DNA of 63,496 nt from Candidatus Hadarchaeota archaeon (GCA_964394495.1 CAYMXQ010000002.1:1-63496), one strand, 5' to 3'; counted from the stretch's first letter, positions 1-33,004 are shown. The notes: a model not told the origin generated them from the sequence alone. Made by a program: numbers and translations.

Positions 1-85
1 CGCCGGGGAGGGGATTCGAACCCCTGGTCTCCAACGGAGAACCAGATCTCGAGTCTGGCGCGTTACCTGGCTTCGCTACCCCGGC
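1..85 (-). tRNA. tRNA-Ser (anticodon CGA), class II with long variable arm; 3' end abuts the window edge
   Basis: The reverse complement folds as a cloverleaf. Acceptor GCCGGGG/CCCCGGC, anticodon arm CCAGA-CUCGAGA-UCUGG, variable arm UUCUCCGUUGGAGAC, T arm AGGGG-UUCGAAU-CCCCU, discriminator G. Confidence 0.9.
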
Positions 86-148: not shown

Positions 149-3100
149 TCACAGAAAGTCGGCGAGGCTGAGCTGCCTGCGAGCATCGCTCTCGAACATC
201 GATTTGATGTCGTATTGGGTGAGGCCCAAGCGTTGTTTGGTGTAATCGCTGACATGGTATTCATCCGCCACCCGCATCGCGATCTGCATGTACTTCTCCA
301 CTCCCCCCCGCGTGACGGTCAGAATCAATTTACCGCCGCAGCGATTGCAAACGCCACTGAGCGGCACCCGGCGGTGAATGAAGTTGCACGACACACACCT
401 GAAACTCTGGCTCGCGAACCTTCGGAGGTTACCCTTCAGGTCCGGGATGAAGTGGTGCTCTATGAGTCGCTCGGCAACGTCCCGCTCATCCACGGCCCTT
501 ATCCTCCTCGCCAGCTCAAGCTGCTCTGATGTCTTCTCTTCCATCGTCTCCAGGGTCTTGTACCTGCTCGAGTGCGGACCGGCTGCGATATCGCTCGTGC
601 TGAAGGAAAACTTCAGCCCCTCATACTGCGCCTCCTTCCCGAGCCTCTGCCCGACGGTTTCCATCTGCTTCGCCAATTCCACGGGTTTAGCGTAGCGCTG
701 CGTAGCCTCGTAGAACTCCAGCGGATACCTCTCCATCACGTCCATGTTGTGCGCCTGCTTGTCTATCTCGGCGGGGTCTACGCGGGTGCTGAAGATAAGC
801 GGGGCGTCCATCGTCCCGCCGCGTTTGGACGGCAGAAAACGCCTGCTGAAGTTCAACAGGGCGTCAAGCAATAACATGACGCAGTCCTCATCGCCGTCAC
901 AATCCCTTCTTTTTGCCGCGTGGAAGAACGGGTGCGCGTAGCCAACGGTTGCTTCGGTGAACCCTATTATGCGCCCAGCGGTCCCGACAGAGGTGTGCGG
1001 AGCCAGACCCATCACTATGTGGCCTACGAGATCTGCCGCGCGAGTGACATTGTAGTACGGCGGCAGACCATAGACCTTCTGCAACAGCTCATCAACGAAC
1101 TTTGACGCCCGCAGGAGATAATCCGCTCCTGAATCCAATCCTGAATCTGCCCTCGCGTTTGAGATAATCACATCCTGCACTTTCAGCTCGACCAACTGAT
1201 CATCGCTCTCAAGCGAATCCCCGTTGATGTCCTTGGCGTACCCGAGCTCACGCAACCGCTCGACTGGGGTGCCTATCTCCTTGGGCTTGAAGTGAGTGAG
1301 GGGAACGTTGGTGGCATCGAACCTTATAGTCCCATCCTTGAACACATAGACGCCGTGTTTCGCGCGCAGTATTCCCTTCTCAATCGGCTCCGGGATCTTG
1401 TAAGCGCTGGTCATACCCTGCACCCCTTTGACCAACTCTGGGGGCTTTTCCTGAAGCCGCTCAAGCGCGGCCTCGAAAAGTGATTTCAGGTCTAGCCCAC
1501 GTTCGCTGAAATACTCAGCGCGAACATTGCACACCGGGCACCTCTCGTTCGCCACCGGACGCTTGCAGCGGGGGCACGCTTTCATGTATTCCGCAGTGGA
1601 CCCGCACTTCTGACATTTCCTCGTGAAACCGATGGACCCGCATTTCTGGCACTTTAGCGTCGCTACTTCGACGTATACCTCACCCTTCCCAAACGTCGCC
1701 TTAGATTCTTTCCTCTCACCCTTCATGTTGTTTTCAGCCGCTGCCTTCACCAAGCTGCGAGTCATTCCGCCGCGCATTCCTACTGGAAAAAGCACGTGTA
1801 CCGGGGGGCTCATCTGACGTGGATTGGCCTTCTCCGGCCTGCCCATCCTGGCGCCTATGCGTGTTGGGGCCTTCTTCCTAACCGGGAACCCAGCCAACGT
1901 CTGGATTATCTCCATGACGTCCTTTGCAGCGCTTAGAAGCATGGTCTCTTCCAATTTTTTCCCGGTCAAACATTGCCCATCGAGCAATCCAAGGCATCTA
2001 CATAGCGGGAGGGCGTGGTCTTCTATTACCACTTTTCCGTTCTCAACTCTGTGAGGTACTCCAAGCTCTTCCAACGCCCTCTTTGGAGATTGGTCAGGCG
2101 AGAGGCGCAACCGCTTGAGCTCACCGCCTTCAAACTCCGGCTCCCCGCTGGCCAGCCAGTTGCCGAGCTCCCCCAGTTCCTCTATTTTGAGATCGTGGTA
2201 TGGGTATGTGCAAGCTGGGTGGAGAGGAACCCTGAGCTCCTCGGATATCTTTATCGCGAGTGCTGGTGCTGGCCTCGGATACGGTTTCGAAAGGTACTGG
2301 CTCAGATCTGACTCGAATTTTCTGTCCGCTAGAGCTAGCCCAACTTCTTGAGACCACCATTCTTCACAACAACCTGCAGGCATCAACGGATGGTTGTTCT
2401 CTAGAAACTCCCCAAAGCCGATGAGGATATCCCCCAAAAACAGTATCTCGTCTATCTTGCCTCTCAACTCCGACGCTTCCTCCGCTGAGTTGAGCTGGAC
2501 TACCGAACCGTCTCTAAGTTTGACGGTCGGTCCCTCAACAGAGTCAACCGGTACAACGACCCCGCTCTTCCCCGGCCGTTCCATCTTAAGCTGTGTGCCA
2601 ACTGCCACGAAATCGTTGCACGCCGCCATTGTCGCGGGATGCAAACCGACCGCAGCTATACCTGTATTCCTCGCCCGCCCGTAGCGTAGCCTGAAACCTC
2701 CCTCGCTGCCGCGCTGCCTCCCTGGATGAGACAAAACAGGCCTTCCTGCTATGACCTCGTTCAGATACGCATCCCCTTTCGGAAAAGCAGCGGCGCCCTT
2801 GTCATCAGTCGGCGCCTTTGTGACCAATTCAGAAAGCCAGCCCCACCCGTCGATATTCAGCTTGTCCACGTACTTCATTATCTTGGCAGCCTTCTGCATA
2901 ACCCCCTCGACCAGCGCCAGGACCGCACCGCCCCTAACTAGGTTGTGTTCTATGCGTTCGAGGTCCCTAAATGCGGTGACCGTTATGTCCCTCTCGGTTG
3001 GCTCACCGGTTATTTCCACTGGGAGGTTCTGTACCGCGAATTTTACGTCCTCCTGTGACGGTTTGTACTGCTCGCGTGCTATGCTCGTGCCGTATAGTTC

Positions 3101-3667
3101 GACCTCCTCCGCAAATCTATTCACTTCTTTTTCGCTCGGCTTGAACGCGCTTAGATACAACCTCCGCCGCACGAAATCCCCTGCTAGAACTGCCATGGCT
3201 GCTGCTGTCCCACCGGCGGCCCTGATGGGACTAGCGAAGTAAAGCGCGAGATATGGGCTCCCGTCGAAATTCTTCTTTATCTCGACGTGTGTTATGCCCT
3301 CCAGAGGCGCGGTTACTCTTCCCTCCGTTAACACGGCCAGCGCCGTCCGTATGGCCTGCTCGGCCACGGCTTGTTCATTTAATTTACCGAACTTCCCATC
3401 GACGATCATCTCAACCAGTTTCAGCGCCAGCTCCTCGCGATCCTCGCTGGACATTACCTTCTCAAGCTCCCGTATCACCTCTGCGACGCCCTTCGGCCCG
3501 ACTAGCTCCTCGACCCTCGCTGCTAGATCACCTGCTCGCGGAATCTCCGGTTCAAGCTCAGGGTCGTGTCCCAGCGAGCGAGCTTTTTTGGCTATCTCGT
3601 ACATCTCGTCTATTTTATGCTCCAGCACGGTGAAGTATTCGTCCATCTCCACGCTCATCGTCGTCAA
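149..3667 (-). CDS. polC: DNA polymerase II (PolD) large subunit DP2
   Basis: 1172-aa ORF. Has the DP2-typical zinc clusters (CQKCGS..CQKCGS, CPRC..CPVC, CVSC..CNRCGG). The start overlaps the upstream gene stop by 4 nt. Confidence 0.95.
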   Translation of the reverse strand: MTTMSVEMDEYFTVLEHKIDEMYEIAKKARSLGHDPELEPEIPRAGDLAARVEELVGPKGVAEVIRELEKVMSSEDREELALKLVEMIVDGKFGKLNEQAVAEQAIRTALAVLTEGRVTAPLEGITHVEIKKNFDGSPYLALYFASPIRAAGGTAAAMAVLAGDFVRRRLYLSAFKPSEKEVNRFAEEVELYGTSIAREQYKPSQEDVKFAVQNLPVEITGEPTERDITVTAFRDLERIEHNLVRGGAVLALVEGVMQKAAKIMKYVDKLNIDGWGWLSELVTKAPTDDKGAAAFPKGDAYLNEVIAGRPVLSHPGRQRGSEGGFRLRYGRARNTGIAAVGLHPATMAACNDFVAVGTQLKMERPGKSGVVVPVDSVEGPTVKLRDGSVVQLNSAEEASELRGKIDEILFLGDILIGFGEFLENNHPLMPAGCCEEWWSQEVGLALADRKFESDLSQYLSKPYPRPAPALAIKISEELRVPLHPACTYPYHDLKIEELGELGNWLASGEPEFEGGELKRLRLSPDQSPKRALEELGVPHRVENGKVVIEDHALPLCRCLGLLDGQCLTGKKLEETMLLSAAKDVMEIIQTLAGFPVRKKAPTRIGARMGRPEKANPRQMSPPVHVLFPVGMRGGMTRSLVKAAAENNMKGERKESKATFGKGEVYVEVATLKCQKCGSIGFTRKCQKCGSTAEYMKACPRCKRPVANERCPVCNVRAEYFSERGLDLKSLFEAALERLQEKPPELVKGVQGMTSAYKIPEPIEKGILRAKHGVYVFKDGTIRFDATNVPLTHFKPKEIGTPVERLRELGYAKDINGDSLESDDQLVELKVQDVIISNARADSGLDSGADYLLRASKFVDELLQKVYGLPPYYNVTRAADLVGHIVMGLAPHTSVGTAGRIIGFTEATVGYAHPFFHAAKRRDCDGDEDCVMLLLDALLNFSRRFLPSKRGGTMDAPLIFSTRVDPAEIDKQAHNMDVMERYPLEFYEATQRYAKPVELAKQMETVGQRLGKEAQYEGLKFSFSTSDIAAGPHSSRYKTLETMEEKTSEQLELARRIRAVDERDVAERLIEHHFIPDLKGNLRRFASQSFRCVSCNFIHRRVPLSGVCNRCGGKLILTVTRGGVEKYMQIAMRVADEYHVSDYTKQRLGLTQYDIKSMFESDARRQLSLADFL

Positions 3668-4473
3668 TTCACCACCTCTGCTATGCTTTTTAGCACAAAA
3701 TCAGGCGCCATCCTCGTGTTCCTTACCTTCCGCACGTCCTCCTTCGTACACACGCCGCTGAGCACAAGCGCGGTCCTGACACCGGCAGCTTTCCCTGCCA
3801 TGACATCCGTGTCGATGCGGTCGCCGATCATCAATGTCTCCCTTGGTCTAGCGCCGAGCAACTTGAGCGAAATTTTTATCGTGTGGGGTGATGGCTTTCC
3901 GACCACAATGCTCGGCTCCTTTCCCGAGCAGCCGACGAGCGCCCCGACCATTGCTCCGGCCCCTGGAGTGAGCTCGACCTCGGTGGGATATGTGGAATCC
4001 GTGTTCGTGGCAATGAAATACGCCCCGGCACGGAGAGCGCGCAGCCCAGCCGCGATCTTTCTGTAACTCAACTTTCGGTCCAGACCAACAACCACATGAG
4101 TCGCTCCCTCGGCCTCCTCTTCTGAAACTATTTTTAGCCCAGCGCCTCTCAGCTCCGACCGTAAACCGTCCTCGCCCACCACGTAGATTACCGCGTCTGG
4201 GTATCGCCTTCGCAGGTAAATCGCAGTAGCGTACCCAGCCGTCACTATTTCAGACTCATCCGCTGGGATTCCCATAGACTTCAATTTTCTGGCGTACTCC
4301 GCGCGAGTGCTCGATGAGTTGTTCGTTGAAAAGATCAGCTTCTTGCCCTTACCCCGAAACCACCTGATCGCCTCCGATGCGCCTTCAACTGGTCTTTTTC
4401 CAGTGTAAAGAACGCCGTCCATGTCTAGGATTATGGCCGATATATTCTCGATGTTTAGAACGTGCTTATACAA
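3664..4473 (-). CDS. HAD-superfamily hydrolase, subfamily IIA (NagD-like sugar phosphatase)
   Basis: 269 aa. Motif I ILDMDGVLY, later STNNSS and the MIGDRIDTD motif. Embedded between the two PolD subunit genes. Confidence 0.8.
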   Translation of the reverse strand: MYKHVLNIENISAIILDMDGVLYTGKRPVEGASEAIRWFRGKGKKLIFSTNNSSSTRAEYARKLKSMGIPADESEIVTAGYATAIYLRRRYPDAVIYVVGEDGLRSELRGAGLKIVSEEEAEGATHVVVGLDRKLSYRKIAAGLRALRAGAYFIATNTDSTYPTEVELTPGAGAMVGALVGCSGKEPSIVVGKPSPHTIKISLKLLGARPRETLMIGDRIDTDVMAGKAAGVRTALVLSGVCTKEDVRKVRNTRMAPDFVLKSIAEVVN

Positions 4474-6043
4474 AATGTATCGCCTCGGTCTGATGCGTTT
4501 GAAGGTTAAAAACTGGCACGATACCCGGCGTCGGCTCCACGCCCAACTTCCGCATGAACTCCGTCATTCCCTGAAATGTCCCAGAGTTTATCACGGAAAC
4601 GTCTCTGTAGCGCGTGTGCTCCTCGCGATGGACATGGCCGCAGTGGAAAACGTCCGGTGCTTCCTCTATGACCATGTAATCGTGCTGCTCAGGGGATATC
4701 GCCGTGCGGCCGCCGTATATGGGCGCGAGGTGTCTTTTCTGCAGGAGTTTGATCATTATCGAGGTCGGATTTACACGGTTGATGCCCGGCATGGCCGAAA
4801 CTACGTCATCGAAGCTCCTGCCATGGTACACGATAAAATTGACACCATGGAGAGAGACCCAAACCGGATTTCCGACCATGACTGAGTTCAGCCCGTGCAG
4901 TCCCTCAGCCACATTCTTATGAATCGCTGGCTGCGGCTCAGCGGGGCGCACCGCGTCGTGGTTGCCTGGTGCTATGATGATGGTGATGTGTTCTGGGATT
5001 TGGCTGAGCAGCTTTGCTGCCGTATCGTACTGTTTGAAAATATCGTCTACCAGGAGTTCCTTCTCCTGCTCAGGGTATACTCCGATCCCATCTACGACGT
5101 CACCAGCGATGACGAGGTACTTGACCCTGCCCGCTAGCTCTTGCTGTCTGGGGTCGTCGGCTCCGCCGTGCAGCCATTTCACAAACTTCGAGAACAGATT
5201 TTCCAGAAACATCTCGCTCCCAACGTGTAAATCCGATATCAATGCGGCGCAAATCGGATCATCCGCTATGTGCGTCTCATGTTTCATGGGCAGGTCTGGC
5301 CAGATTATGTCATTCACGAAAATCCGTGGGGCCCTGTCACCACTTCGCAATGACCCCACCACTCCAATGACCTCGTCCACGACAACCTCCGCCGCCTTCT
5401 GCGCGAGCTCTCTCTTCCCCTTGAAGACGAGCGTTGATATCCTTCCGGTTTGGTCTTCTAGGTCTATCATCGTATTTCCAGCCGAGGACTCCCGCTTGTT
5501 TGACACGATTCCGATCACTTTGACCTGCGCCCTGTCGTCAACGTTCCTCAGGCTTCCTATCGGGAGCGCATCCTGTAGCTCAACCCGCTTTCGAAGGAGA
5601 CGGTTAATCCGCTCGTATCTGTCCTTGAAGAGCCCCACGAAATCCTTTAGCCCCCCCTCGCTGTAGCTCCGCCCGGTGATGTCTTTCTGCACCACGACGC
5701 GAGCCTCGTACTCGGCTGCGATGGGTTTGAATTTCGTGTGTGTGAGTTCGGGCAGTCTCTTTTCCTCGAAGCTTGGCCCGGGCACCGCCTCGATTTCAGC
5801 TGCGGCTATGGGATGTACGACGGGTTGCTGCCTTGGCTGCGGTTGTACGACCCCCTCCAGGATTCTCGTCACGATATCGGGAGTTATTATGAACGGCCTG
5901 CTCTCTGTTTCCCTCAATGCGGCCAAAACTCGTTCTACTGCCGCTTCCGCGTCCTCCCGTCCCAGAAGCACCTCAAGTGTGCCCTTCGTCGGCTGCATGT
6001 CCGCTTCTATAAATCTGCGAACAACGGCACCCTCATCCATCAA
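4466..6043 (-). CDS. polB: DNA polymerase II (PolD) small subunit DP1 (exonuclease)
   Basis: 525 aa. Calcineurin/Mre11-like phosphoesterase motifs DLHVGS, GDVVDG, GNHD, GHVH, preceded by an OB-fold region. Confidence 0.93.
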   Translation of the reverse strand: MMDEGAVVRRFIEADMQPTKGTLEVLLGREDAEAAVERVLAALRETESRPFIITPDIVTRILEGVVQPQPRQQPVVHPIAAAEIEAVPGPSFEEKRLPELTHTKFKPIAAEYEARVVVQKDITGRSYSEGGLKDFVGLFKDRYERINRLLRKRVELQDALPIGSLRNVDDRAQVKVIGIVSNKRESSAGNTMIDLEDQTGRISTLVFKGKRELAQKAAEVVVDEVIGVVGSLRSGDRAPRIFVNDIIWPDLPMKHETHIADDPICAALISDLHVGSEMFLENLFSKFVKWLHGGADDPRQQELAGRVKYLVIAGDVVDGIGVYPEQEKELLVDDIFKQYDTAAKLLSQIPEHITIIIAPGNHDAVRPAEPQPAIHKNVAEGLHGLNSVMVGNPVWVSLHGVNFIVYHGRSFDDVVSAMPGINRVNPTSIMIKLLQKRHLAPIYGGRTAISPEQHDYMVIEEAPDVFHCGHVHREEHTRYRDVSVINSGTFQGMTEFMRKLGVEPTPGIVPVFNLQTHQTEAIHFV

Positions 6044-6051
6044 AACCCCCT

Positions 6052-7362
6052 CTAAACCAGCGTAATCTGCTTGGGGAGGGGTAACACCTCTACGCTGCCG
6101 ATGGAATAATCCTCTTGAATGGACGCTCTAGCTTGAGTCGGATGGATGTTCAACTTTATTTCCCTAGTTCGGCCGTGGCGGCCCTTGTTGATGATCTGCG
6201 CGCTTATTATCCCGAGCATGTCCAGCTCGGATATCAGGTCGCTCACGCGGCGTTGCGTCAGAACATCCAGCCCTATCTGCTGGCATAGGTCCTCGTAGAT
6301 ATCATAAACGTCGCCGCTTACTATCCTGCGCGGGGTCCTCTCCACCAGCAAAACGACGCTGTAAAGCACCAACTTAGACTGCGTGGGCAACGTTCGGATT
6401 ATCTCGACCATCTTATCCTGATCTATCTTCTCGTGGGCCTGCCTGACTTGCTCAAGCGTTACGAACTCCGCTCCCACGCGCTCTGCAAGTTCCCCCGCCA
6501 CCCGAAGTAAATCAAGGGCCCGCCTAGCGTCTCCGTGCTCCCTAGCCGCGTGGGCAGAGCAGAGCTGAATCACGCCCTCGCCGAGCACATCGTCCACGAA
6601 ACTTATCTTGGCCCTCTTTTCTAGGATTTCTTTGAGCTGAAGACCGTTGTAGGCGGGGAACACCAGTTCCTCCTCGCTAAAGCTGCTCCGGACGCGTGGG
6701 TCCAAGTATTCCATGAAGTTCGTGTCATTCGAGATGCCAACGACCGCGACCTTTGAGTTCTTCAGATCGGAATTCATCCGTGTGAGGTTGTATAGCGCTT
6801 CATCTCCGTTCCTTTGTACAAGTTTATCGACCTCGTCCAGTACTATCACAGCAAGCTGTTTTTCCTCATCCAGCGCCCTGAAGAAACTGCGGTAGACCTC
6901 ATCAGTGGGCCATCCAGTCATAGGTACGCGCCTCGGAAGCTCGATGGATTTCAGAAATTCCTCGCCTCGGGAATTCCTCAGTTTTTCCAGGAAAACACCT
7001 GAAAGGGTCGCGAGTATCCTATACTGAGTGTTCACCACCTCGCAATTCATGTAAATCACGCTCACTTTCAACGGCGCGCGATCGCTGACCTTTTCGAGTT
7101 CCTTCGCCACGTACTTCACGCTTGCGGTCTTTCCCGTCCCAGGCTTCCCGTATATTAAAATGTTCGACGGGGTCTCGCCTCTCAACGGCGCCGCCAGTAT
7201 CCGCGCGAGCTGCTTGATCTGATCCTCTCTGTGCGGCAGTTCCTCAGGTGTGTAGCTCGGGCGTAGGTACTCTCGGTTTTTGAATATCGGCCTCGTCTCC
7301 AGCAACGTGCTGAACAGACCTCCCAAACTCATCTTTTCCAGCCTCCTCTCCAATCTTTTCAA
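6052..7362 (-). CDS. cdc6: Orc1/Cdc6 replication initiator (copy 1)
   Basis: 436 aa. Walker A GKPGTGKTA, Walker B VIVLDEVD, C-terminal winged helix. An alternative start at 7332 (MSLGG) is possible. Confidence 0.93.
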   Translation of the reverse strand: MKRLERRLEKMSLGGLFSTLLETRPIFKNREYLRPSYTPEELPHREDQIKQLARILAAPLRGETPSNILIYGKPGTGKTASVKYVAKELEKVSDRAPLKVSVIYMNCEVVNTQYRILATLSGVFLEKLRNSRGEEFLKSIELPRRVPMTGWPTDEVYRSFFRALDEEKQLAVIVLDEVDKLVQRNGDEALYNLTRMNSDLKNSKVAVVGISNDTNFMEYLDPRVRSSFSEEELVFPAYNGLQLKEILEKRAKISFVDDVLGEGVIQLCSAHAAREHGDARRALDLLRVAGELAERVGAEFVTLEQVRQAHEKIDQDKMVEIIRTLPTQSKLVLYSVVLLVERTPRRIVSGDVYDIYEDLCQQIGLDVLTQRRVSDLISELDMLGIISAQIINKGRHGRTREIKLNIHPTQARASIQEDYSIGSVEVLPLPKQITLV

Positions 7363-7822
7363 ACAAATCGTTCAACCCTTGGTTCCAGCTCTCGAGCACA
7401 CCGACCAAGCGATTGACCAGGAAACGTTCTTCAAGCGGCATCTCCCCAAGGCTCTCGGGCGAAAGCGCTAGCCTGAGGAGTTTTGGCAGCCTAGTCTCCA
7501 ACAGGGTCATTGTTTGAGCCTTTAGCCCATCCGCCTTCTCAAGGTCTCCCCCTATCTTTAAGTTTGAGGTTTCGTGCATGGCTGATGAGTAAAAATTTTC
7601 TGGGAGAGTTGCTAGTCCGGAGCTGCGCTCCTCGGTGAGAACCAGTTTTCGAAGTTCCGAGATAGTGGGCTTTTTTGTGGGTACTACAATACCGTGACGC
7701 TCAAGAACCACTGCCTCCCATGACCAGAGCGTTATTTCTTCCCCATCTGAGAAAGGACCAAGTTGCTTGCCCGCCAGTTTCAACTCTTGCATATCTTTGA
7801 TTACGCGAACATGCTCTTTCAT
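7244..7822 (-). CDS. GINS subunit (Gins51-like)
   Basis: 192 aa lying directly between MCM and Orc1. N-terminal small beta domain, then a helical domain with LPENFY and RLPKLLRLAL motifs typical of GINS A-domains. The tail overlaps the Orc1 gene. Confidence 0.6.
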   Translation of the reverse strand: MKEHVRVIKDMQELKLAGKQLGPFSDGEEITLWSWEAVVLERHGIVVPTKKPTISELRKLVLTEERSSGLATLPENFYSSAMHETSNLKIGGDLEKADGLKAQTMTLLETRLPKLLRLALSPESLGEMPLEERFLVNRLVGVLESWNQGLNDLFEKIGEEAGKDEFGRSVQHVAGDEADIQKPRVPTPELHT

Positions 7823-9826
7823 TCACTTCACCGCTCGACTTATCATCTCTGGTTTAGGCGAGTAGAGATAGCCCCTCTTTTTTTCCTCCTCGATCATCTC
7901 TTCCACAAACTTCTCACTGATTTTCTCCGCCATCGCCTTGATCTTCACCTTTTCAATCGGTGCTGCCCCTCCGTACTCTTCCTCCAACTCTTTTATTATC
8001 TCAAGGACTCGTTGACGCCTCTCGCGTTGGGACTTGGGCATACCTGTCATAAGCAGATCTATGTCCGTGGCGCCCGTCTCCGTGTCCAGCCCGGCCTCTT
8101 TCAAGGAAGTTTTTACGAGGTTTATCGCACGGTTTGCGTCCTCAACAGTGACTCGGTTGCTCAACCTCATCCTTGCGTTTGCCTTCGCCAGCCGTATGAG
8201 CGCCTCCAGCTGTCTAACCGTTATGGGCAGCGGGGCCCCCTCCGCCACGATCTTCCTCCAGTCCACGAAGAAATTCTCTATCGCTTTCTGGATCTCCTTA
8301 TCTTCAAGTTTGGGCTCGATGTTCTTGCGCGCGTAGATGATAATTTTACGCAGGAAATCCGGATTAAAGGGGGCTTTCACCACCTTCTTCGGGTCTGTGT
8401 GCATCTTCAGGACATGCTGCGCTATCTCGTGGTCGTAATCGGCGCGAGGCTCATCACGCATTATCAATACCAAATCGAACCTGGAGAGAAGGACTGGCTC
8501 CAAGCCAATCTGCTGCACGAGCGGTCTACTTATGTCAAACCTGCCGTACTTTGGATTCGCAGCAGCGAGGACTCCAGTGCGGGTGTTGAGGGTCGCAATG
8601 ATGCCTGCCTTGGAGATGCTGATTGTTTGTTGTTCCATGGCTTCTAAAATAGCGCCCGACTCTTCTCGGTTCATCTTCTCGAACTCATCTATGCTCGCTA
8701 GCCCGCCATCAGCTATAACAAGTGTCCCGGCCTCAAGGGCCCACCCACCGCTTATCTCATCGCGGACTGCAGCAGCCGTGAGCCCAGCACCCGTAGACTT
8801 TGTTCCCGAGGTGTAGAGGCCGCGGGGGGCTACCGCTGCTACCCACTTCAGTATCTGACTTTTCCCAGTGCCCGGGTCTCCCGTTAGGAGAACATGGGAG
8901 TCGCCGCGTATCCTCGTCCCATCCGACAACTCGATGGGGTTACACCCGAAAAGCTGGAGCGCCACAGCCTCCTTTACTGCCTCGTGTCCATGGATCGCGG
9001 GGATAACTGACTGGATGATTTTGTTTCTGACCCACGGGTCCTTGGCCAGCTCCTTTATTCTTTTCTCATCTTCCTCCGTCAACTCGGCCTCCTCGACCCC
9101 CTTCTGTAGGACCTCGGTATGGCTCACAAACAGTATCTTTCGAAAAGTCGTCGTGTGCTCCCTATGTTGCCTCTCCTGGAAAACGCGGAGCACCCCTGTC
9201 ATGGCCACGTGATTACCGGGCACGGCTTTGTCGACAAAATCGTCCCTGACTATGCCATCCAGCCTCCTAGGCATCCGCCCCCCACGGAGTTTTTCAGGGG
9301 GTTCTTGGATACAAATGCTCTGCCAGTCGCGGAAAATCGTGCTTTCTATTACGAGATCAAACGGGCCTTTTTTACGACAATTTGGGTTTTCGCAAACGAG
9401 CGGCTCCCTAAAAAACTCGTCCACCTGCAGCACCCTGTTCTCCTCCCCACAGCGCCTGCACTTGAACACGGCTTCCTTAGCCTCTGGTTTCACCTCACCA
9501 GCCCGAGTCATGATGCCCTCTACTTGGATGAACTTGCTAACATGTTCGGCGCGAATGTTGCGTATCTCTATGCTTTCAGGCAAACTCTTAACACGGAGAC
9601 GCATGCCAGGAATTTTTGTTATGTCTTCAAGCATGGCGTCGGCGGCATCAAAAAATCCCGGAGGGGAATCCAGCAGTGCTTTGGCGAGATTTTTGTTGAA
9701 TTCAAGGAGGTTCTCGAAATCGATGACGATTGATTTATGCCCAGATGACGTTCTCCTCCTGAGTTCTTTTATGATGTCTTTCCCGTGGAGAAACTCCTCT
9801 AGTTTTTCCATTAGTTCGGCCTCCAA
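7823..9826 (-). CDS. mcm: MCM replicative helicase
   Basis: 667 aa. Zn finger CRRCG..CENPNC, Walker A GDPGTGKSQ, Walker B IDEFEKM, arginine finger SRFDL, C-terminal winged helix. No intein. Confidence 0.95.
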   Translation of the reverse strand: MEAELMEKLEEFLHGKDIIKELRRRTSSGHKSIVIDFENLLEFNKNLAKALLDSPPGFFDAADAMLEDITKIPGMRLRVKSLPESIEIRNIRAEHVSKFIQVEGIMTRAGEVKPEAKEAVFKCRRCGEENRVLQVDEFFREPLVCENPNCRKKGPFDLVIESTIFRDWQSICIQEPPEKLRGGRMPRRLDGIVRDDFVDKAVPGNHVAMTGVLRVFQERQHREHTTTFRKILFVSHTEVLQKGVEEAELTEEDEKRIKELAKDPWVRNKIIQSVIPAIHGHEAVKEAVALQLFGCNPIELSDGTRIRGDSHVLLTGDPGTGKSQILKWVAAVAPRGLYTSGTKSTGAGLTAAAVRDEISGGWALEAGTLVIADGGLASIDEFEKMNREESGAILEAMEQQTISISKAGIIATLNTRTGVLAAANPKYGRFDISRPLVQQIGLEPVLLSRFDLVLIMRDEPRADYDHEIAQHVLKMHTDPKKVVKAPFNPDFLRKIIIYARKNIEPKLEDKEIQKAIENFFVDWRKIVAEGAPLPITVRQLEALIRLAKANARMRLSNRVTVEDANRAINLVKTSLKEAGLDTETGATDIDLLMTGMPKSQRERRQRVLEIIKELEEEYGGAAPIEKVKIKAMAEKISEKFVEEMIEEEKKRGYLYSPKPEMISRAVK

Positions 9827-18712: not shown

Positions 18713-19738
18713 AGCACTTTTTCGTGTGGTGGTGGAACGAAGGAAAGGCTTGGCCTAATTACGCGCGGCACAACCGAGGTCGTCACCGAAACTGAACTAC
18801 AGGCGCTCTTAAAGCAGGAAAAAAAGTTTCTAGCTTACTGTGGGTACGAACCATCTGGCAAGATTCACTTCGGGCACGCCTTGACCGTCCAGAAACTGAT
18901 GGACATCCAAGAGGCCGGGGCTCGCGTCATCGTCTTGCTTGCTGATTTACACGCGTATCTAAACCACAAGGGAACCCTCGAAGAGATCAGGCGGGTGGCG
19001 GAATACAACAAGCACTGTTTCATCGCCCTAGGGCTGGACCCCGGGCGGGCGGAGTTTTTGCTGGGTTCAGATTTTCAGCTTAAGCCAGAGTTCATGACGG
19101 ACGTACTCAAGATGGCCACGGACACTACGTTGCTCAGGGCGCGGCGGTCTATGGCTGAAATCGCGAGGCACTTGAAGGATCCAGACGTAGCGCAGGTGCT
19201 TTATCCACTCATGCAAGCGGTCGATATGGCGCACCTTAAAGTAGACGTGGCAGTTGGGGGGAACGACCAACGCAAGGTGCACATGATAGCGCGTGAGAAA
19301 TTGCCAGCGCTGGGATACAAAAAACCTGTTTGCGTCCATGTCCCGCTTTTGCATGGGACGGACGGCGCAGCCAAAATGTCGTCAAGCAAGGGCAACTTCA
19401 TCGCGATAGACGACGAGCCCCACGTGATAAAACAAAAAATAGAAAAAGCGTTCAGCCCGCCAAAGCAGACGAACGACAACCCCATTGTCGAGTACGCCGA
19501 ACACATCGTTTTGCCTGCTCTAGGTAAACTGGAGATCAAAAGGCTGGAACGTTACGGAGGACCGCTTGGACTAATCGACATAGGCGAGCTCAAAAAACTT
19601 TATGGGGCTGGCCAGCTGCACCCAGCCGACCTGAAGGCAGCAGTGGCGGAAGCGCTCGTCGACGTACTCGCGCCCGTCCGCGCTTACTTCGAAAAACATC
19701 CAAACGCTAGACTCGCAGAGCATTTCAAGGCTCATTAG
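18713..19738 (+). CDS. tyrS: Tyrosyl-tRNA synthetase (open frame given; true start unresolved)
   Basis: HIGH motif (KIHFGH, 18860-18877) and KMSSS motif. Collinear with archaeal TyrRS from ERLGLITRGTTEVV onward. There is no in-frame ATG/GTG/TTG between the stop at 18710 and the TTG at 18881, and that TTG lies downstream of HIGH. Confidence 0.85.
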   Translation, partial: STFSCGGGTKERLGLITRGTTEVVTETELQALLKQEKKFLAYCGYEPSGKIHFGHALTVQKLMDIQEAGARVIVLLADLHAYLNHKGTLEEIRRVAEYNKHCFIALGLDPGRAEFLLGSDFQLKPEFMTDVLKMATDTTLLRARRSMAEIARHLKDPDVAQVLYPLMQAVDMAHLKVDVAVGGNDQRKVHMIAREKLPALGYKKPVCVHVPLLHGTDGAAKMSSSKGNFIAIDDEPHVIKQKIEKAFSPPKQTNDNPIVEYAEHIVLPALGKLEIKRLERYGGPLGLIDIGELKKLYGAGQLHPADLKAAVAEALVDVLAPVRAYFEKHPNARLAEHFKAH

Positions 19739-30429: not shown

Positions 30430-31626
30430 TTGTTCGAGGAAATCTTTGAGGAGGAGCTCGGCCGGGAATCGGTTTTTCGCGATGCCAGTAAGCTTTTACC
30501 CGATCACGTTCCTGCAGCCCTGGTGCACCGCGATGAGGAGTTCCGCCAGCTGACCAGGATCTTCAAACCCGTGATCGAAAGCAAGGCCAGCCAGCGAGTT
30601 CTAGTAACAGGCAGCACAGGGGTCGGGAAAACGGCCCTGACCCGAAGGTTTGGAGCCGTGTTGGAGGCAACGGTAAAAAGTAGGAACCTTAACCTGATTT
30701 ACTTCCACATAAACTGCCGTAAGGACAGGACACTTTATTCCGTCTTGGTGAAGCTTTACCAGCACTTTAACCCACGCTGGCCCTATCGCGGGCTAGGTCC
30801 AGAGAAGCTTCTCGACACGGCCGTCACATACCTGAACTCCCACGATGCCTATCTGGTGCTCACCTTGGACGAGATCGATTACTTCCTGCAGCTGAACGGC
30901 CCCGACCTGCTCTATTCACTGACTCGTGCGGCCGAGGAGTCGGGGGGGCCTAATCGGATAAGCATCATAGCGATAGCAAAAGACAAGAGTTTTCTTAGGT
31001 ACCTCGACGCCGCGACCCAGAGCACTTTCATGCATAACGTCCTGCATCTCGATAAGTACAACGCCCGGCAACTGACGGACATAATGAACCAGAGGATCGG
31101 GGAGGCCTTCAAGGTGGGGGCGGTTGAAGAAGAAACCGTGGAGTTGATAGCCGACACCGCCTCTCGGTTGGGTGACGCGCGCTTCGCTCTCGAGTTGCTC
31201 TGGCGAGCCGGCATGATGGCGGACGGGGAGAGGAAGGATGTGGTCGCACCGGAGCACGCGCGCCGAGCTAAGGCGGAGGTCTACCCTGAGGTCAAACGGG
31301 AGGTCCTGCGCGAACTGCATCCGCACGAGAAACTTGTCCTACTGGCCATCGTGCGGAAGCTCAGGATTTCCAAACGGGCTTACGCGCCCACAGAGGATAT
31401 GGAGAGCTCATACCGCGTAGTCTGCGAGGAGTACGGGGAGGAGCCTCACGCCCACACTCAGTTTTGGGGGCACGTAAAGCGGATGGAGGGTCTAGGCCTA
31501 GTAGATCTTAGGCCCACCAAGTCTCGCCATCGCGGGCGGGGAAGTTTAAGGATAGGTGCCCACGAGATTCCAGTTGAATGGCTGGAGAGGGAAATGGAAG
31601 GGCTGCTCGATGGCCGCAAGCGATAG
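30430..31626 (+). CDS. Orc1/Cdc6 replication initiator paralog (copy 2)
   Basis: 398 aa, TTG start. Walker A GSTGVGKTA, Walker B VLTLDEID, C-terminal winged helix. Confidence 0.9.
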   Translation: MFEEIFEEELGRESVFRDASKLLPDHVPAALVHRDEEFRQLTRIFKPVIESKASQRVLVTGSTGVGKTALTRRFGAVLEATVKSRNLNLIYFHINCRKDRTLYSVLVKLYQHFNPRWPYRGLGPEKLLDTAVTYLNSHDAYLVLTLDEIDYFLQLNGPDLLYSLTRAAEESGGPNRISIIAIAKDKSFLRYLDAATQSTFMHNVLHLDKYNARQLTDIMNQRIGEAFKVGAVEEETVELIADTASRLGDARFALELLWRAGMMADGERKDVVAPEHARRAKAEVYPEVKREVLRELHPHEKLVLLAIVRKLRISKRAYAPTEDMESSYRVVCEEYGEEPHAHTQFWGHVKRMEGLGLVDLRPTKSRHRGRGSLRIGAHEIPVEWLEREMEGLLDGRKR

Positions 31627-31696
31627 AAAGACTTTTTCAACTTTCAGCCAAAGTCCTTCGGGGGTCGTGGGGTAGCCTGGTCTATCCTTCTGGCTT

Positions 31697-31719
31697 AAGG
31701 CCGTTTTCGGCCTGCCAAT
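31697..31719 (+). other. tRNA-Pro intron 1 (23 nt) at position 33/34
   Basis: hBHBh' motif. Central helix TGGC(31691-94)/GCCA(31714-17). Bulges TTA and ATC. Inner helix AGGCCG/CGGCCT with a TTTT loop. Outer helix 31687-90/31721-24. Confidence 0.75.
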
Positions 31720-31723
31720 CGGG

Positions 31724-31745
31724 GCTTAGACCAACTAGGCGAAAG
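31724..31745 (+). other. tRNA-Pro intron 2 (22 nt) at canonical position 37/38
   Basis: hBHBh' motif whose central helix TTCG/CGAA(31740-43) exists only after intron 1 is excised. Bulges GGG and AGA. Inner helix CTTAG/CTAGG. The outer helix is the anticodon stem. Confidence 0.75.
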
Positions 31746-31783
31746 AGCCAGAGACCCGAGTTCGAATCTCGGCGACCCCACCA

Positions 31784-33004
31784 CTACTTCCTCTTTTTCC
31801 TGACACGTTTCGTCTTAGGTGGCTTCAGGCGGGCCAGCCCCCAGACTGCGAGAAGTAGCAGAACCGCGACGAGTATGTAGATGAAACCTTTCCAGATGTC
31901 ACCTCCCGGCATCGAGCCCCAGCTTCCGAAGCAGTAGAGCCGACCGTCACCCGACCCAAAGACCTTCCCATATGCAATGGCAGGTGAGGCAGTCCCTGTG
32001 GCCCCTATGTGGTATTTCCATACAAGGTCCCCGTTCTGTGTGTTCAAAGCGTAGAGGTACCCGTCTTGGGTGGCAATGAAAACCTTGTTGTCAGTGACGG
32101 CAGGTGAAGACTGCACTTGTCCCTCAGTGGTGTAACTCCACCTCAGTCCACCGTTTTCGGCGTCTAGGGCGTAGATGAGGCCGTCGTTCGAGCTGAAATA
32201 GACCGTGTCGTCTGCGATAGCCGGGGAGGATTCGATTGGATTTCCCACACCAAATTTCCAGAGCTCACCTCCAGTAGCTTTGTCAAGCGCATAGAGATGT
32301 CCGTCGTTCGAGCCGATGTAAACGCGACCGTCCATGACCGCCGGAGAGGAGACTATTGAATTATTTTCTATCTGATGACTCCAGAACACAGACCCATCAC
32401 CCGTACGTAGGGCATAGACAGTGCCGTCCCAAGTTCCGATGAAAATCAGGCTGCCTTCAATTGCTAGCGAAGATGTGGTCATACTCGCCAGGTTTTTCTC
32501 CCAAATCAATTGCCCGGTCGTTGTGTTGAGAGCATAGACGAAGTTGTCAGTTGAGGCGATGTAGACGACGTTGTTCACTACTGCTGGCGAGGAGTAAATC
32601 GCGCCCTGCGTAGAGTAGCTCCAGATGTTCTCTCCTGTCGCCACGCCCAAACAATAAACAAAATGGTCGTGGGAACCGAAGTAAACGCGCCCGTTGGAAA
32701 AAGCGGGTGACGAGACTTCACCCCCCGCATTGAACCTCCATATCTCTTTCCCGTTGAACACATCTATCGCGTAGAGATATCCACTGCTCGACCCTACGAA
32801 CACCTTGTAGTTGTCGACCGCAGGCGAGGAAAGTGTACCCTCTGCATCGAACGTCCACGCGATTTCGTAAGTGTCCGGAGCGGGATAGTCAGAATAGCCT
32901 GTGCGTTGGGGGTCGTGTTGAAAAGTAGGCCACTCTTGCGCCTGGACAGTTCCAGCTAGCATTAGGGCGATGATTATTACAAGCACGGCTTTCACAGGCA
33001 TCAT
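31784..33004 (-). CDS. Secreted/anchored PQQ-like beta-propeller repeat protein
   Basis: 406 aa. N-terminal signal-like segment, about 8 repeats of the V(Y/F)xGSxDGxLYAL type, C-terminal TM helix plus a KKRK tail. Confidence 0.8.
   Translation of the reverse strand: MMPVKAVLVIIIALMLAGTVQAQEWPTFQHDPQRTGYSDYPAPDTYEIAWTFDAEGTLSSPAVDNYKVFVGSSSGYLYAIDVFNGKEIWRFNAGGEVSSPAFSNGRVYFGSHDHFVYCLGVATGENIWSYSTQGAIYSSPAVVNNVVYIASTDNFVYALNTTTGQLIWEKNLASMTTSSLAIEGSLIFIGTWDGTVYALRTGDGSVFWSHQIENNSIVSSPAVMDGRVYIGSNDGHLYALDKATGGELWKFGVGNPIESSPAIADDTVYFSSNDGLIYALDAENGGLRWSYTTEGQVQSSPAVTDNKVFIATQDGYLYALNTQNGDLVWKYHIGATGTASPAIAYGKVFGSGDGRLYCFGSWGSMPGGDIWKGFIYILVAVLLLLAVWGLARLKPPKTKRVRKKRK

Follow-up and report, generated by a model that had tools for sequence, protein, structure and literature searches.

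A Hadarchaeota tRNA-Pro(CGG) gene with two anticodon-loop introns around a 4-nt micro-exon and a predicted order of splicing

Multiple-intron archaeal tRNAs of the BHB type are well described, mostly from Thermoproteales (PMC4090602, PMC4033280). In a canonical archaeal pre-tRNA, nt 32 to 35 form the 5' strand of a 4-bp central helix, and the cuts are made after the second base of each of the two 3-nt bulges (PMC4090602). As stated in the tRNAscan-SE 2.0 paper, some introns are so close to each other that formation of the second BHB requires the prior removal of one of them (PMC8450103), and intron heterogeneity at a single tRNA locus has been described for Caldiarchaeum (PMC3293823). Non-canonical introns are also known from three thermophilic euryarchaeal methanogens (Chan et al. 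2011), and the pre-tRNA-Pro(GGG) of ARMAN-2 harbors two T-loop introns, at positions 53/54 and 59/60 (PMC3239211). Finally, Kaneta et al. report that Hadesarchaea possess an alpha4 EndA with an L3 insert, which was linked in 2018 to a broad specificity and to a larger number of disrupted tRNA genes in this lineage (PMC5829648).

Here, we analyzed a gene from a 63,496-nt stretch of DNA (the window, at its full length) which, judging from its sequence, is well supported as a tRNA-Pro(CGG) gene with introns at positions 33/34 and 37/38 and a CGGG micro-exon between them. The Thermoproteales with multiple-intron tRNAs (such as Pyrobaculum and Thermofilum), which are handled by SPLITS and tRNAscan-SE 2.0, are Crenarchaeota, whereas the present gene belongs to Hadarchaeota. 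Furthermore, unlike in Thermoproteales, the anticodon loop contains both introns, separated by 4 nt, and the middle exon consists of the anticodon plus G37. Position 33/34 is absent from the intron positions listed in a review of the field (PMC4090602). Once intron 1 has been removed, intron 2 is a textbook match to the canonical 37/38 hBHBh' intron (geometry according to PMC4090602), but, unlike in the canonical case, intron 1 interrupts the central helix of intron 2 as long as the transcript is unspliced. The ARMAN-2 tRNA-Pro(GGG) resembles the gene of the window in having two BHB introns in one 7-nt loop and a very short middle exon. It differs in that the T loop is concerned, the middle exon measures 6 nt instead of 4, the EndA is of the epsilon2 type and the anticodon is not isolated (PMC3239211). 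The Hadesarchaea of Kaneta et al. are of the same lineage as the window, and the main text of that paper, in its available parts, contains no gene-level description (PMC5829648).

Our literature search, which reached reviews and tool papers but not primary intron catalogues, returned no description of the 33/34 plus 37/38 combination. The author of an earlier note on this DNA was not aware of a description of two introns 4 nt apart in the anticodon loop. Within the literature searched, this stands for the combination of positions, but interdependent close introns, a loop with two introns and disrupted tRNA genes in Hadesarchaea were all known before. Marck and Grosjean reportedly described in 2003 a Methanothermobacter tRNA-Pro with a non-canonical intron at about 32/33 and a canonical one at 37/38. 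We take this as a lead only, and the literature search gave no match for it; such a gene would share the two anticodon-loop introns with that of the window but would have its non-canonical site at about 32/33 instead of 33/34. The components and the splicing logic are thus already known, and the anatomy is neat and strongly supported.

The gene extends from 31661 to 31783 on the plus strand (123 nt) and reads GGGGTCGTGGGGTAGCCTGGTCTATCCTTCTGGCTT-AAGGCCGTTTTCGGCCTGCCAAT-CGGG-GCTTAGACCAACTAGGCGAAAG-AGCCAGAGACCCGAGTTCGAATCTCGGCGACCCCACCA. It was recognized by the Rfam tRNA model RF00005 with 43.8 bits under relaxed filters (gathering score, 29), the match spanning model positions 1 to 71 and containing a single insert, of 50 nt, in the anticodon loop. 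The helices of the cloverleaf are all intact. The acceptor stem has 7 bp (GGGGTCG/CGACCCC), the D and T arms and A73 are present, and the CCA is encoded (31781-31783). The anticodon stem is formed by CTGGC (31690-31694) and GCCAG (31747-31751), and the 52 nt between its strands represent a 7-nt loop and 45 extra nucleotides. These features, including the normal acceptor, D and T arms, are in agreement with the earlier note. Exon 1 (31661-31696, plus strand; tRNA positions 1 to 33) comprises the 5' strand of the acceptor stem, the D arm, CTGGC, U32 and U33. It is followed on the same strand by intron 1 (31697-31719; 23 nt, position 33/34), the micro-exon CGGG (31720-31723; anticodon C34 G35 G36 plus G37), intron 2 (31724-31745; 22 nt, canonical position 37/38) and exon 3 (31746-31783; positions 38 to 76). 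The latter contains A38, GCCAG, a 4-nt variable loop, the T arm, the 3' strand of the acceptor stem, A73 and CCA. The limits of both introns were defined by BHB geometry and covariation. Those of the micro-exon, already proposed in the earlier note, are defined by BHB geometry and are borne out by TGGG at the same place in UGG paralogues and by CGGG in intronless orthologues.

On both sides, the gene is accompanied by elements that may direct its transcription. Upstream, a purine-rich stretch (AGAAAGA) followed by an A/T box, CTTTTTCA, forms a promoter-like element (31625-31639, plus strand), with the A/T box at approximately -29 to -22 relative to the first tRNA base. Downstream, 11 nt past the CCA, an oligo-T run (TTTTT, 31794-31798, plus strand) resembles a terminator and overlaps with the 3' end of the PQQ-repeat ORF, which is encoded on the minus strand.

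Default ARAGORN and Rfam with fast filters both missed the gene. Nevertheless, ARAGORN assigned tRNA-Pro(cgg) to every form spliced in silico, whether either or both introns had been removed. The predicted product of 78 nt (75 nt plus CCA) has the loop UUCGGGA with the anticodon CGG and G37, as the earlier note had derived. It combines an NGG anticodon followed by G37 after splicing with A73, G1-C72 and a body like that of archaeal tRNA-Pro; over the first 30 nt, the gene matches a Methanopyri tRNA-Pro(GGG) (L003) at 29 positions. Moreover, the first 51 nt of the predicted mature tRNA, including the whole anticodon arm, are identical to an intronless tRNA-Pro(CGG) (L133), and a second intronless orthologue (L052) matches it at 73 of 78 positions without any indel. 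These orthologues, which score 58.1 (L133) and 57.5 bits (L052) with the Rfam tRNA model, read ...GGCTT-CGGG-AGCC... and are collinear with the predicted product. No second tRNA-Pro was found in the window, where the sole other tRNA is a tRNA-Ser(CGA) (1-85, minus strand). Matches to tmRNA and permuted tmRNA scored 28.1 and 21 bits, below the gathering score of 47; they stem from the tRNA-like ends and were rejected. Group I and group II introns carry a catalytic RNA core and measure hundreds of nucleotides. Self-splicing introns of either type were likewise rejected, the two introns being only 23 and 22 nt long and giving no Rfam intron match.

We then considered the two BHB motifs. The central helix of BHB-1 pairs TGGC (31691-31694; nt 28 to 31 of the anticodon stem) with GCCA (31714-31717) of intron 1. 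Its bulges are TTA (31695-31697) and ATC (31718-31720), and its inner helix has 6 bp (AGGCCG 31698-31703/CGGCCT 31708-31713). In BHB-2, the central helix pairs U32 U33 C34 G35 (31695, 31696, 31720 and 31721) with CGAA (31740-31743), the bulges are GGG (31722-31724) and AGA (31744-31746), and the inner helix has 5 bp (CTTAG 31725-31729/CTAGG 31735-31739). All helices and bulges drawn in the earlier note are therefore present, and both introns show the core of a BHB, that is, a 4-bp central helix and two 3-nt bulges on opposite strands. After removal of intron 1, BHB-2 is a strict hBHBh', the outer helix being the anticodon stem, lengthened from 5 to 7 bp. The outer helix of BHB-1 (C27-G35, U26.G36, U25.G37 and C24-G) can form only if half of the D stem melts. 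L010 and all UGG paralogues retain only 1 bp of this helix, and it is weak or absent in most members of the gene family presented below. Since this outer helix is not conserved, we consider BHB-1 a relaxed BHB and not a second complete hBHBh'. Of the two complete motifs claimed in the earlier note, only BHB-2, in the form lacking intron 1, can be retained as such.

Based on these motifs, we consider it very likely that this is a functional tRNA-Pro(CGG) gene with two short BHB-type introns in its anticodon loop, of which the one in the relaxed BHB-1 is processed before the one in the canonical BHB-2. In the primary transcript, nt 28 to 31 of the stem would pair with the GCCA of intron 1 and not with their usual partner, which would create BHB-1, and its 3-nt bulges would direct cutting to 33/34 and to the site immediately 5' of C34. 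EndA would cut this motif, and a ligase (RtcB in archaea) would join the ends. The ligation would render U32, U33, C34 and G35 contiguous and enable them to pair with the CGAA of intron 2. At the same time, the freed strand of the anticodon stem would pair again with its mature partner beneath BHB-2, giving an hBHBh' at 37/38. The intermediate devoid of intron 1 would read GGCUU-CGGGGCUUAG, and a second round of cutting and ligation would yield the 75-nt tRNA plus CCA with the loop UUCGGGA. One strand of the anticodon stem would hence act as a conformational switch, serving intron 1 first and the mature stem afterward.

The energies of the two conformers agree with such a switch. In the context of the folded tRNA body, the computed energy of the BHB-1 conformer was -40.5 kcal/mol, compared to -41.4 kcal/mol for the anticodon-stem conformer, and this near equality suggests that BHB-1 is accessible. 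The RNAfold minimum-energy fold of the whole precursor is not a cloverleaf. BHBs, however, seldom correspond to the computed energy optimum, and for this reason we discounted that fold as evidence and compared explicit conformers instead. If the proposal holds, the endonuclease must accept a relaxed motif, since the outer helix of BHB-1 is weak or absent in most members of the family. The EndA of Hadesarchaea, reportedly linked to a broad specificity (PMC5829648), would fit this need because that helix is weak and unconserved. No EndA, RtcB or Trm5 was detected with Pfam among the 50 of 57 ORFs of at least 90 aa that were scanned in the window.

To compare related tRNA-Pro loci, as the earlier note had suggested, we scanned prokaryotic genomes, one for each species, for tRNA-Pro-like genes that contain long inserts, requiring a gap of at least 55 nt. 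This yielded 36 loci. Fifteen of them share the two-intron layout, and all 15 are from Hadarchaeota/Hadesarchaea MAGs, six having CGGG and nine having TGGG, i.e., tRNA-Pro(UGG). Together with the gene of the window, this makes 16 two-intron genes (7 CGG and 9 UGG), and further examples occur in metagenomes. Both paralogues were found in five MAGs, with exactly one CGG and one UGG gene in each, both interrupted. As the scan found one of each, they look like the only copies, although a scan that requires a gap of at least 55 nt is blind to intronless ones.

In a 14-sequence alignment, both motifs turned out to covary. The central and inner helices of BHB-1 were paired in 97.9% of the cells, compared to 17-57% in controls with slid partners, and 5 pairs had changes on both sides. 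Similarly, 98.9% of the cells were paired in the anticodon stem and BHB-2, with 4 pairs changed on both sides. The sequences of the inner hairpins vary across lineages, but their pairing is always kept. The dual role of the anticodon-stem strand is illustrated by L010, where stem base 28 has changed from U to C and each of the two bases that it can alternatively pair with, one in intron 1 and one in the 3' strand of the stem, is G instead of A. N34 and its partner in intron 2 form C-G in the 7 CGG genes and U-A in the 7 UGG genes; because this split follows the two paralogue clades, it represents few independent events. Taken as a whole, the comparison nonetheless leaves no ambiguity. More generally, the pairing of U32/U33 and of N34/G35 with intron 2 is kept in 96-100% of the cells.

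Some members of the family deviate from this pattern. The central helix has a C.A mismatch in BHB-1 of L015 and L022 and a U.C mismatch in BHB-2 of L002, presumably because the enzyme tolerates imperfect motifs or because these are assembly or population variants. In addition, the inner helix of intron 2 measures 1-2 bp in several two-intron UGG genes from metagenomes (L073, L079, L087, L147, L118 and L155), and our strict parser failed on, or mis-parsed, UGG-type genes of this kind. This helix seems dispensable in part of the two-intron family.

The order of the two steps was addressed by enumerating all one-step and two-step paths that leave a 7-nt loop, each intron being required to have a 4-bp central helix, two 3-nt bulges and an inner helix of at least 3 bp. 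In the real sequence, this exhaustive enumeration gave exactly one BHB path with zero mismatches, namely, intron 1 followed by intron 2. When the 52-nt insert was shuffled, a complete path of any kind was obtained in 53 of 5,000 cases, with criteria looser than the real motifs, whose inner helices have 6 and 5 bp. A unique strict path with zero mismatches was found in 13 of the 16 genes; L002, L015 and L022 need one central-helix mismatch and, unlike the other 13 genes, were scanned with one mismatch allowed. As the earlier note had proposed, BHB-2 appears only after removal of intron 1: with zero mismatches, it was detected in the unspliced RNA of none of the 13 family members scanned in this way, the window's gene among them.

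It could be argued that the gene structure is the same but the order is not strict, a broad-specificity EndA removing intron 2 first, or either intron first, through a relaxed motif. Indeed, when one mismatch is allowed, intron 2 of the window's gene can leave the unspliced RNA through AUCG/CGAA, a central helix of 3 bp with an A.A mismatch, and the 5-bp inner helix, and intron 1 can follow. This reverse route is also present in L015 and L022, and the EndA insert of Hadesarchaea is reportedly linked to a broad specificity (PMC5829648). The reverse route is, however, weaker than the forward one, since BHB-2 then lacks an outer helix and its central helix is imperfect, and none of the family members scanned without mismatches shows BHB-2 ahead of intron 1 removal. 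Furthermore, the conserved pairing of U32 and U33 of exon 1 and of N34 and G35 of the micro-exon with intron 2, together with the covariation of N34, points to selection on a helix that is continuous only once intron 1 is gone. We therefore regard a loose order as unlikely, though it is the most serious alternative to removal of intron 1 before intron 2. Intron 1 followed by intron 2 is the sole strict route, and it is from this that we infer the order. The word "obligatory," used for it in the earlier note, holds for strict BHBs and otherwise depends on the strictness of the enzyme, since a single mismatch opens the reverse order. In a lineage whose EndA is reportedly of the alpha4 type with an unusual insert, the gene would provide a clean natural substrate for tests of ordered BHB splicing.

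The locus itself is informative as well. In the window, an Orc1/Cdc6 gene (30430-31626) lies on one side of the tRNA gene, and a gene for a PQQ-repeat beta-propeller protein lies on the other (31784-33004, minus strand). The order orc1/cdc6, tRNA, PQQ is common to Hadarchaeota MAGs and metagenomic contigs, with 55-76% amino acid identity. We placed the window in Hadarchaeota because of its 69-76% amino acid identity to Hadarchaeota MAGs and the gene order shared with them. At this locus, we encountered four intron states, in genomes whose Orc1 is about 59-76% identical to that of the window. There is no intron in L052 and L083 and only a 37/38 intron in L102, L097 and L050. The 33/34 plus 37/38 combination is found in the window and in L002, L010, L015, L016, L019, L022, L065, L068 and L105, and a D-arm intron at 22/23 (central helix GTCT/GGAC) accompanies the 37/38 intron in L005, L008 and L026. 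L005, the closest relative of the window by Orc1 identity (76%), has this D-arm intron in place of intron 1. All orthologues have an A/T-rich box approximately 24-32 nt upstream and an oligo-T run downstream, and they thus look like independently transcribed genes. With its four states, the locus represents a compact system for studying the gain, loss and relocation of tRNA introns outside Thermoproteales.

These comparisons also bear on whether the locus might be a decaying pseudogene or the remnant of a mobile-element insertion that is not processed to a working tRNA. Insertions do visibly affect tRNA-Pro genes of this lineage, as exon-1 stumps lie beside a LAGLIDADG-like ORF in related loci. 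Such a fate is nonetheless very improbable for the gene of the window, given its intact cloverleaf and given that both BHB motifs have been preserved by compensatory changes in lineages that share only about 66-71% identity with the window in the flanking DNA. The five MAGs with one interrupted CGG gene and one interrupted UGG gene, apparently their sole copies within the reach of the scan, argue in the same direction.

Removal of a single 45-nt intron, finally, is effectively refuted: it is suggested by ARAGORN -i, which read the unspliced gene as a tRNA-Phe(aaa) containing a 45-nt intron at 33/34 (and L158 likewise aaa), by the 37/38 reading, which indeed gives the Leu anticodon predicted in the earlier note, tRNA-Leu(aag), and by a one-step path found with one mismatch allowed (central helix GGCU/AGGC, loop UUAAAGA, as in Phe(AAA)), but neither junction pair lies in a BHB at zero mismatches, the 37/38 central helix UUAA/CGAA has 2 pairs only, the one-step path has a weak inner helix of merely 2 bp, the body is that of tRNA-Pro over the 51 nt shared with the intronless gene, and both the internal CGGG/TGGG block and the sequence it pairs with show conservation and covariation, for which the interior of a plain intron would have no need. 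Since default tools miss the gene and ARAGORN -i calls it Phe(AAA), MAG pipelines could list tRNA-Pro(CGG) as missing from Hadarchaeota or annotate a spurious A34 tRNA there.

Several related loci harbor an additional gene. In L014, L148, L147, L079, L087 and L158, a conserved ORF of approximately 260-270 aa precedes a complete two-intron tRNA-Pro(UGG), and a decayed stump of tRNA exon 1, measuring 37, about 30 or 13 nt, lies upstream of this ORF. In L014, the ORF is at 2755-3573 and the stump at 3683-3719, both on the minus strand; in L158, the ORF is at 3001-3780 on the plus strand. The stump has kept the promoter that intronless tRNA-Pro(UGG) genes next to orc1 have (L090 and L124). The ORF family consists of 8 unannotated proteins with two LAGLIDADG-type motifs. 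An AlphaFold model (pLDDT 79, pTM 0.82) predicts a two-domain LAGLIDADG homing-endonuclease fold that matches I-DmoI, I-Tsp061I, intein endonucleases and WhiA. The order of stump, ORF and tRNA gene suggests that a homing-endonuclease cassette was inserted into a tRNA-Pro gene near the site of intron 1.

It has long been proposed that introns safeguard tRNA genes against mobile elements. One may speculate that the anticodon-loop introns are maintained in Hadarchaeota as an immunity against a LAGLIDADG homing-endonuclease cassette that targets tRNA genes, an idea we hold to be quite doubtful. A stump, an ORF and a two-intron copy would be expected if the enzyme cut the uninterrupted anticodon arm and a resistant copy traveled with the cassette. 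If true, this would be direct genomic evidence for tRNA introns shielding tRNA genes from mobile elements, and it would account for the presence of an intron on either side of the anticodon. A search for viral contigs carrying the 3' part of the tRNA, as a possible attP, gave no match. The most distant homologue of the ORF (P0008, 38% identity; L157, 207-1274, plus strand) is followed by a tRNA-like 5' half, GGGAAGCTCAGTCTGGTAGAGCACCCGGCTTTTAAGG..., at about 1300-1350, and neither ARAGORN nor Rfam detected a complete tRNA after it.

Elsewhere in the window, a replication gene cluster occupies 149-9826 on the minus strand. It includes the large subunit of PolD (149-3667), next to which lies a HAD hydrolase gene, the small subunit of PolD (4466-6043), a first Orc1/Cdc6 gene (6052-7362) and MCM (7823-9826). 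The 460-bp intergenic gap between Orc1/Cdc6 and MCM (7363-7822) is a candidate replication origin. Additionally, an ORF at 18881-19738 on the plus strand encodes a class I aminoacyl-tRNA synthetase of the Trp/Tyr type. It has 285 aa, and its match to the Pfam catalytic domain begins at profile position 25, so that either the true start lies upstream or the enzyme is unusually compact.
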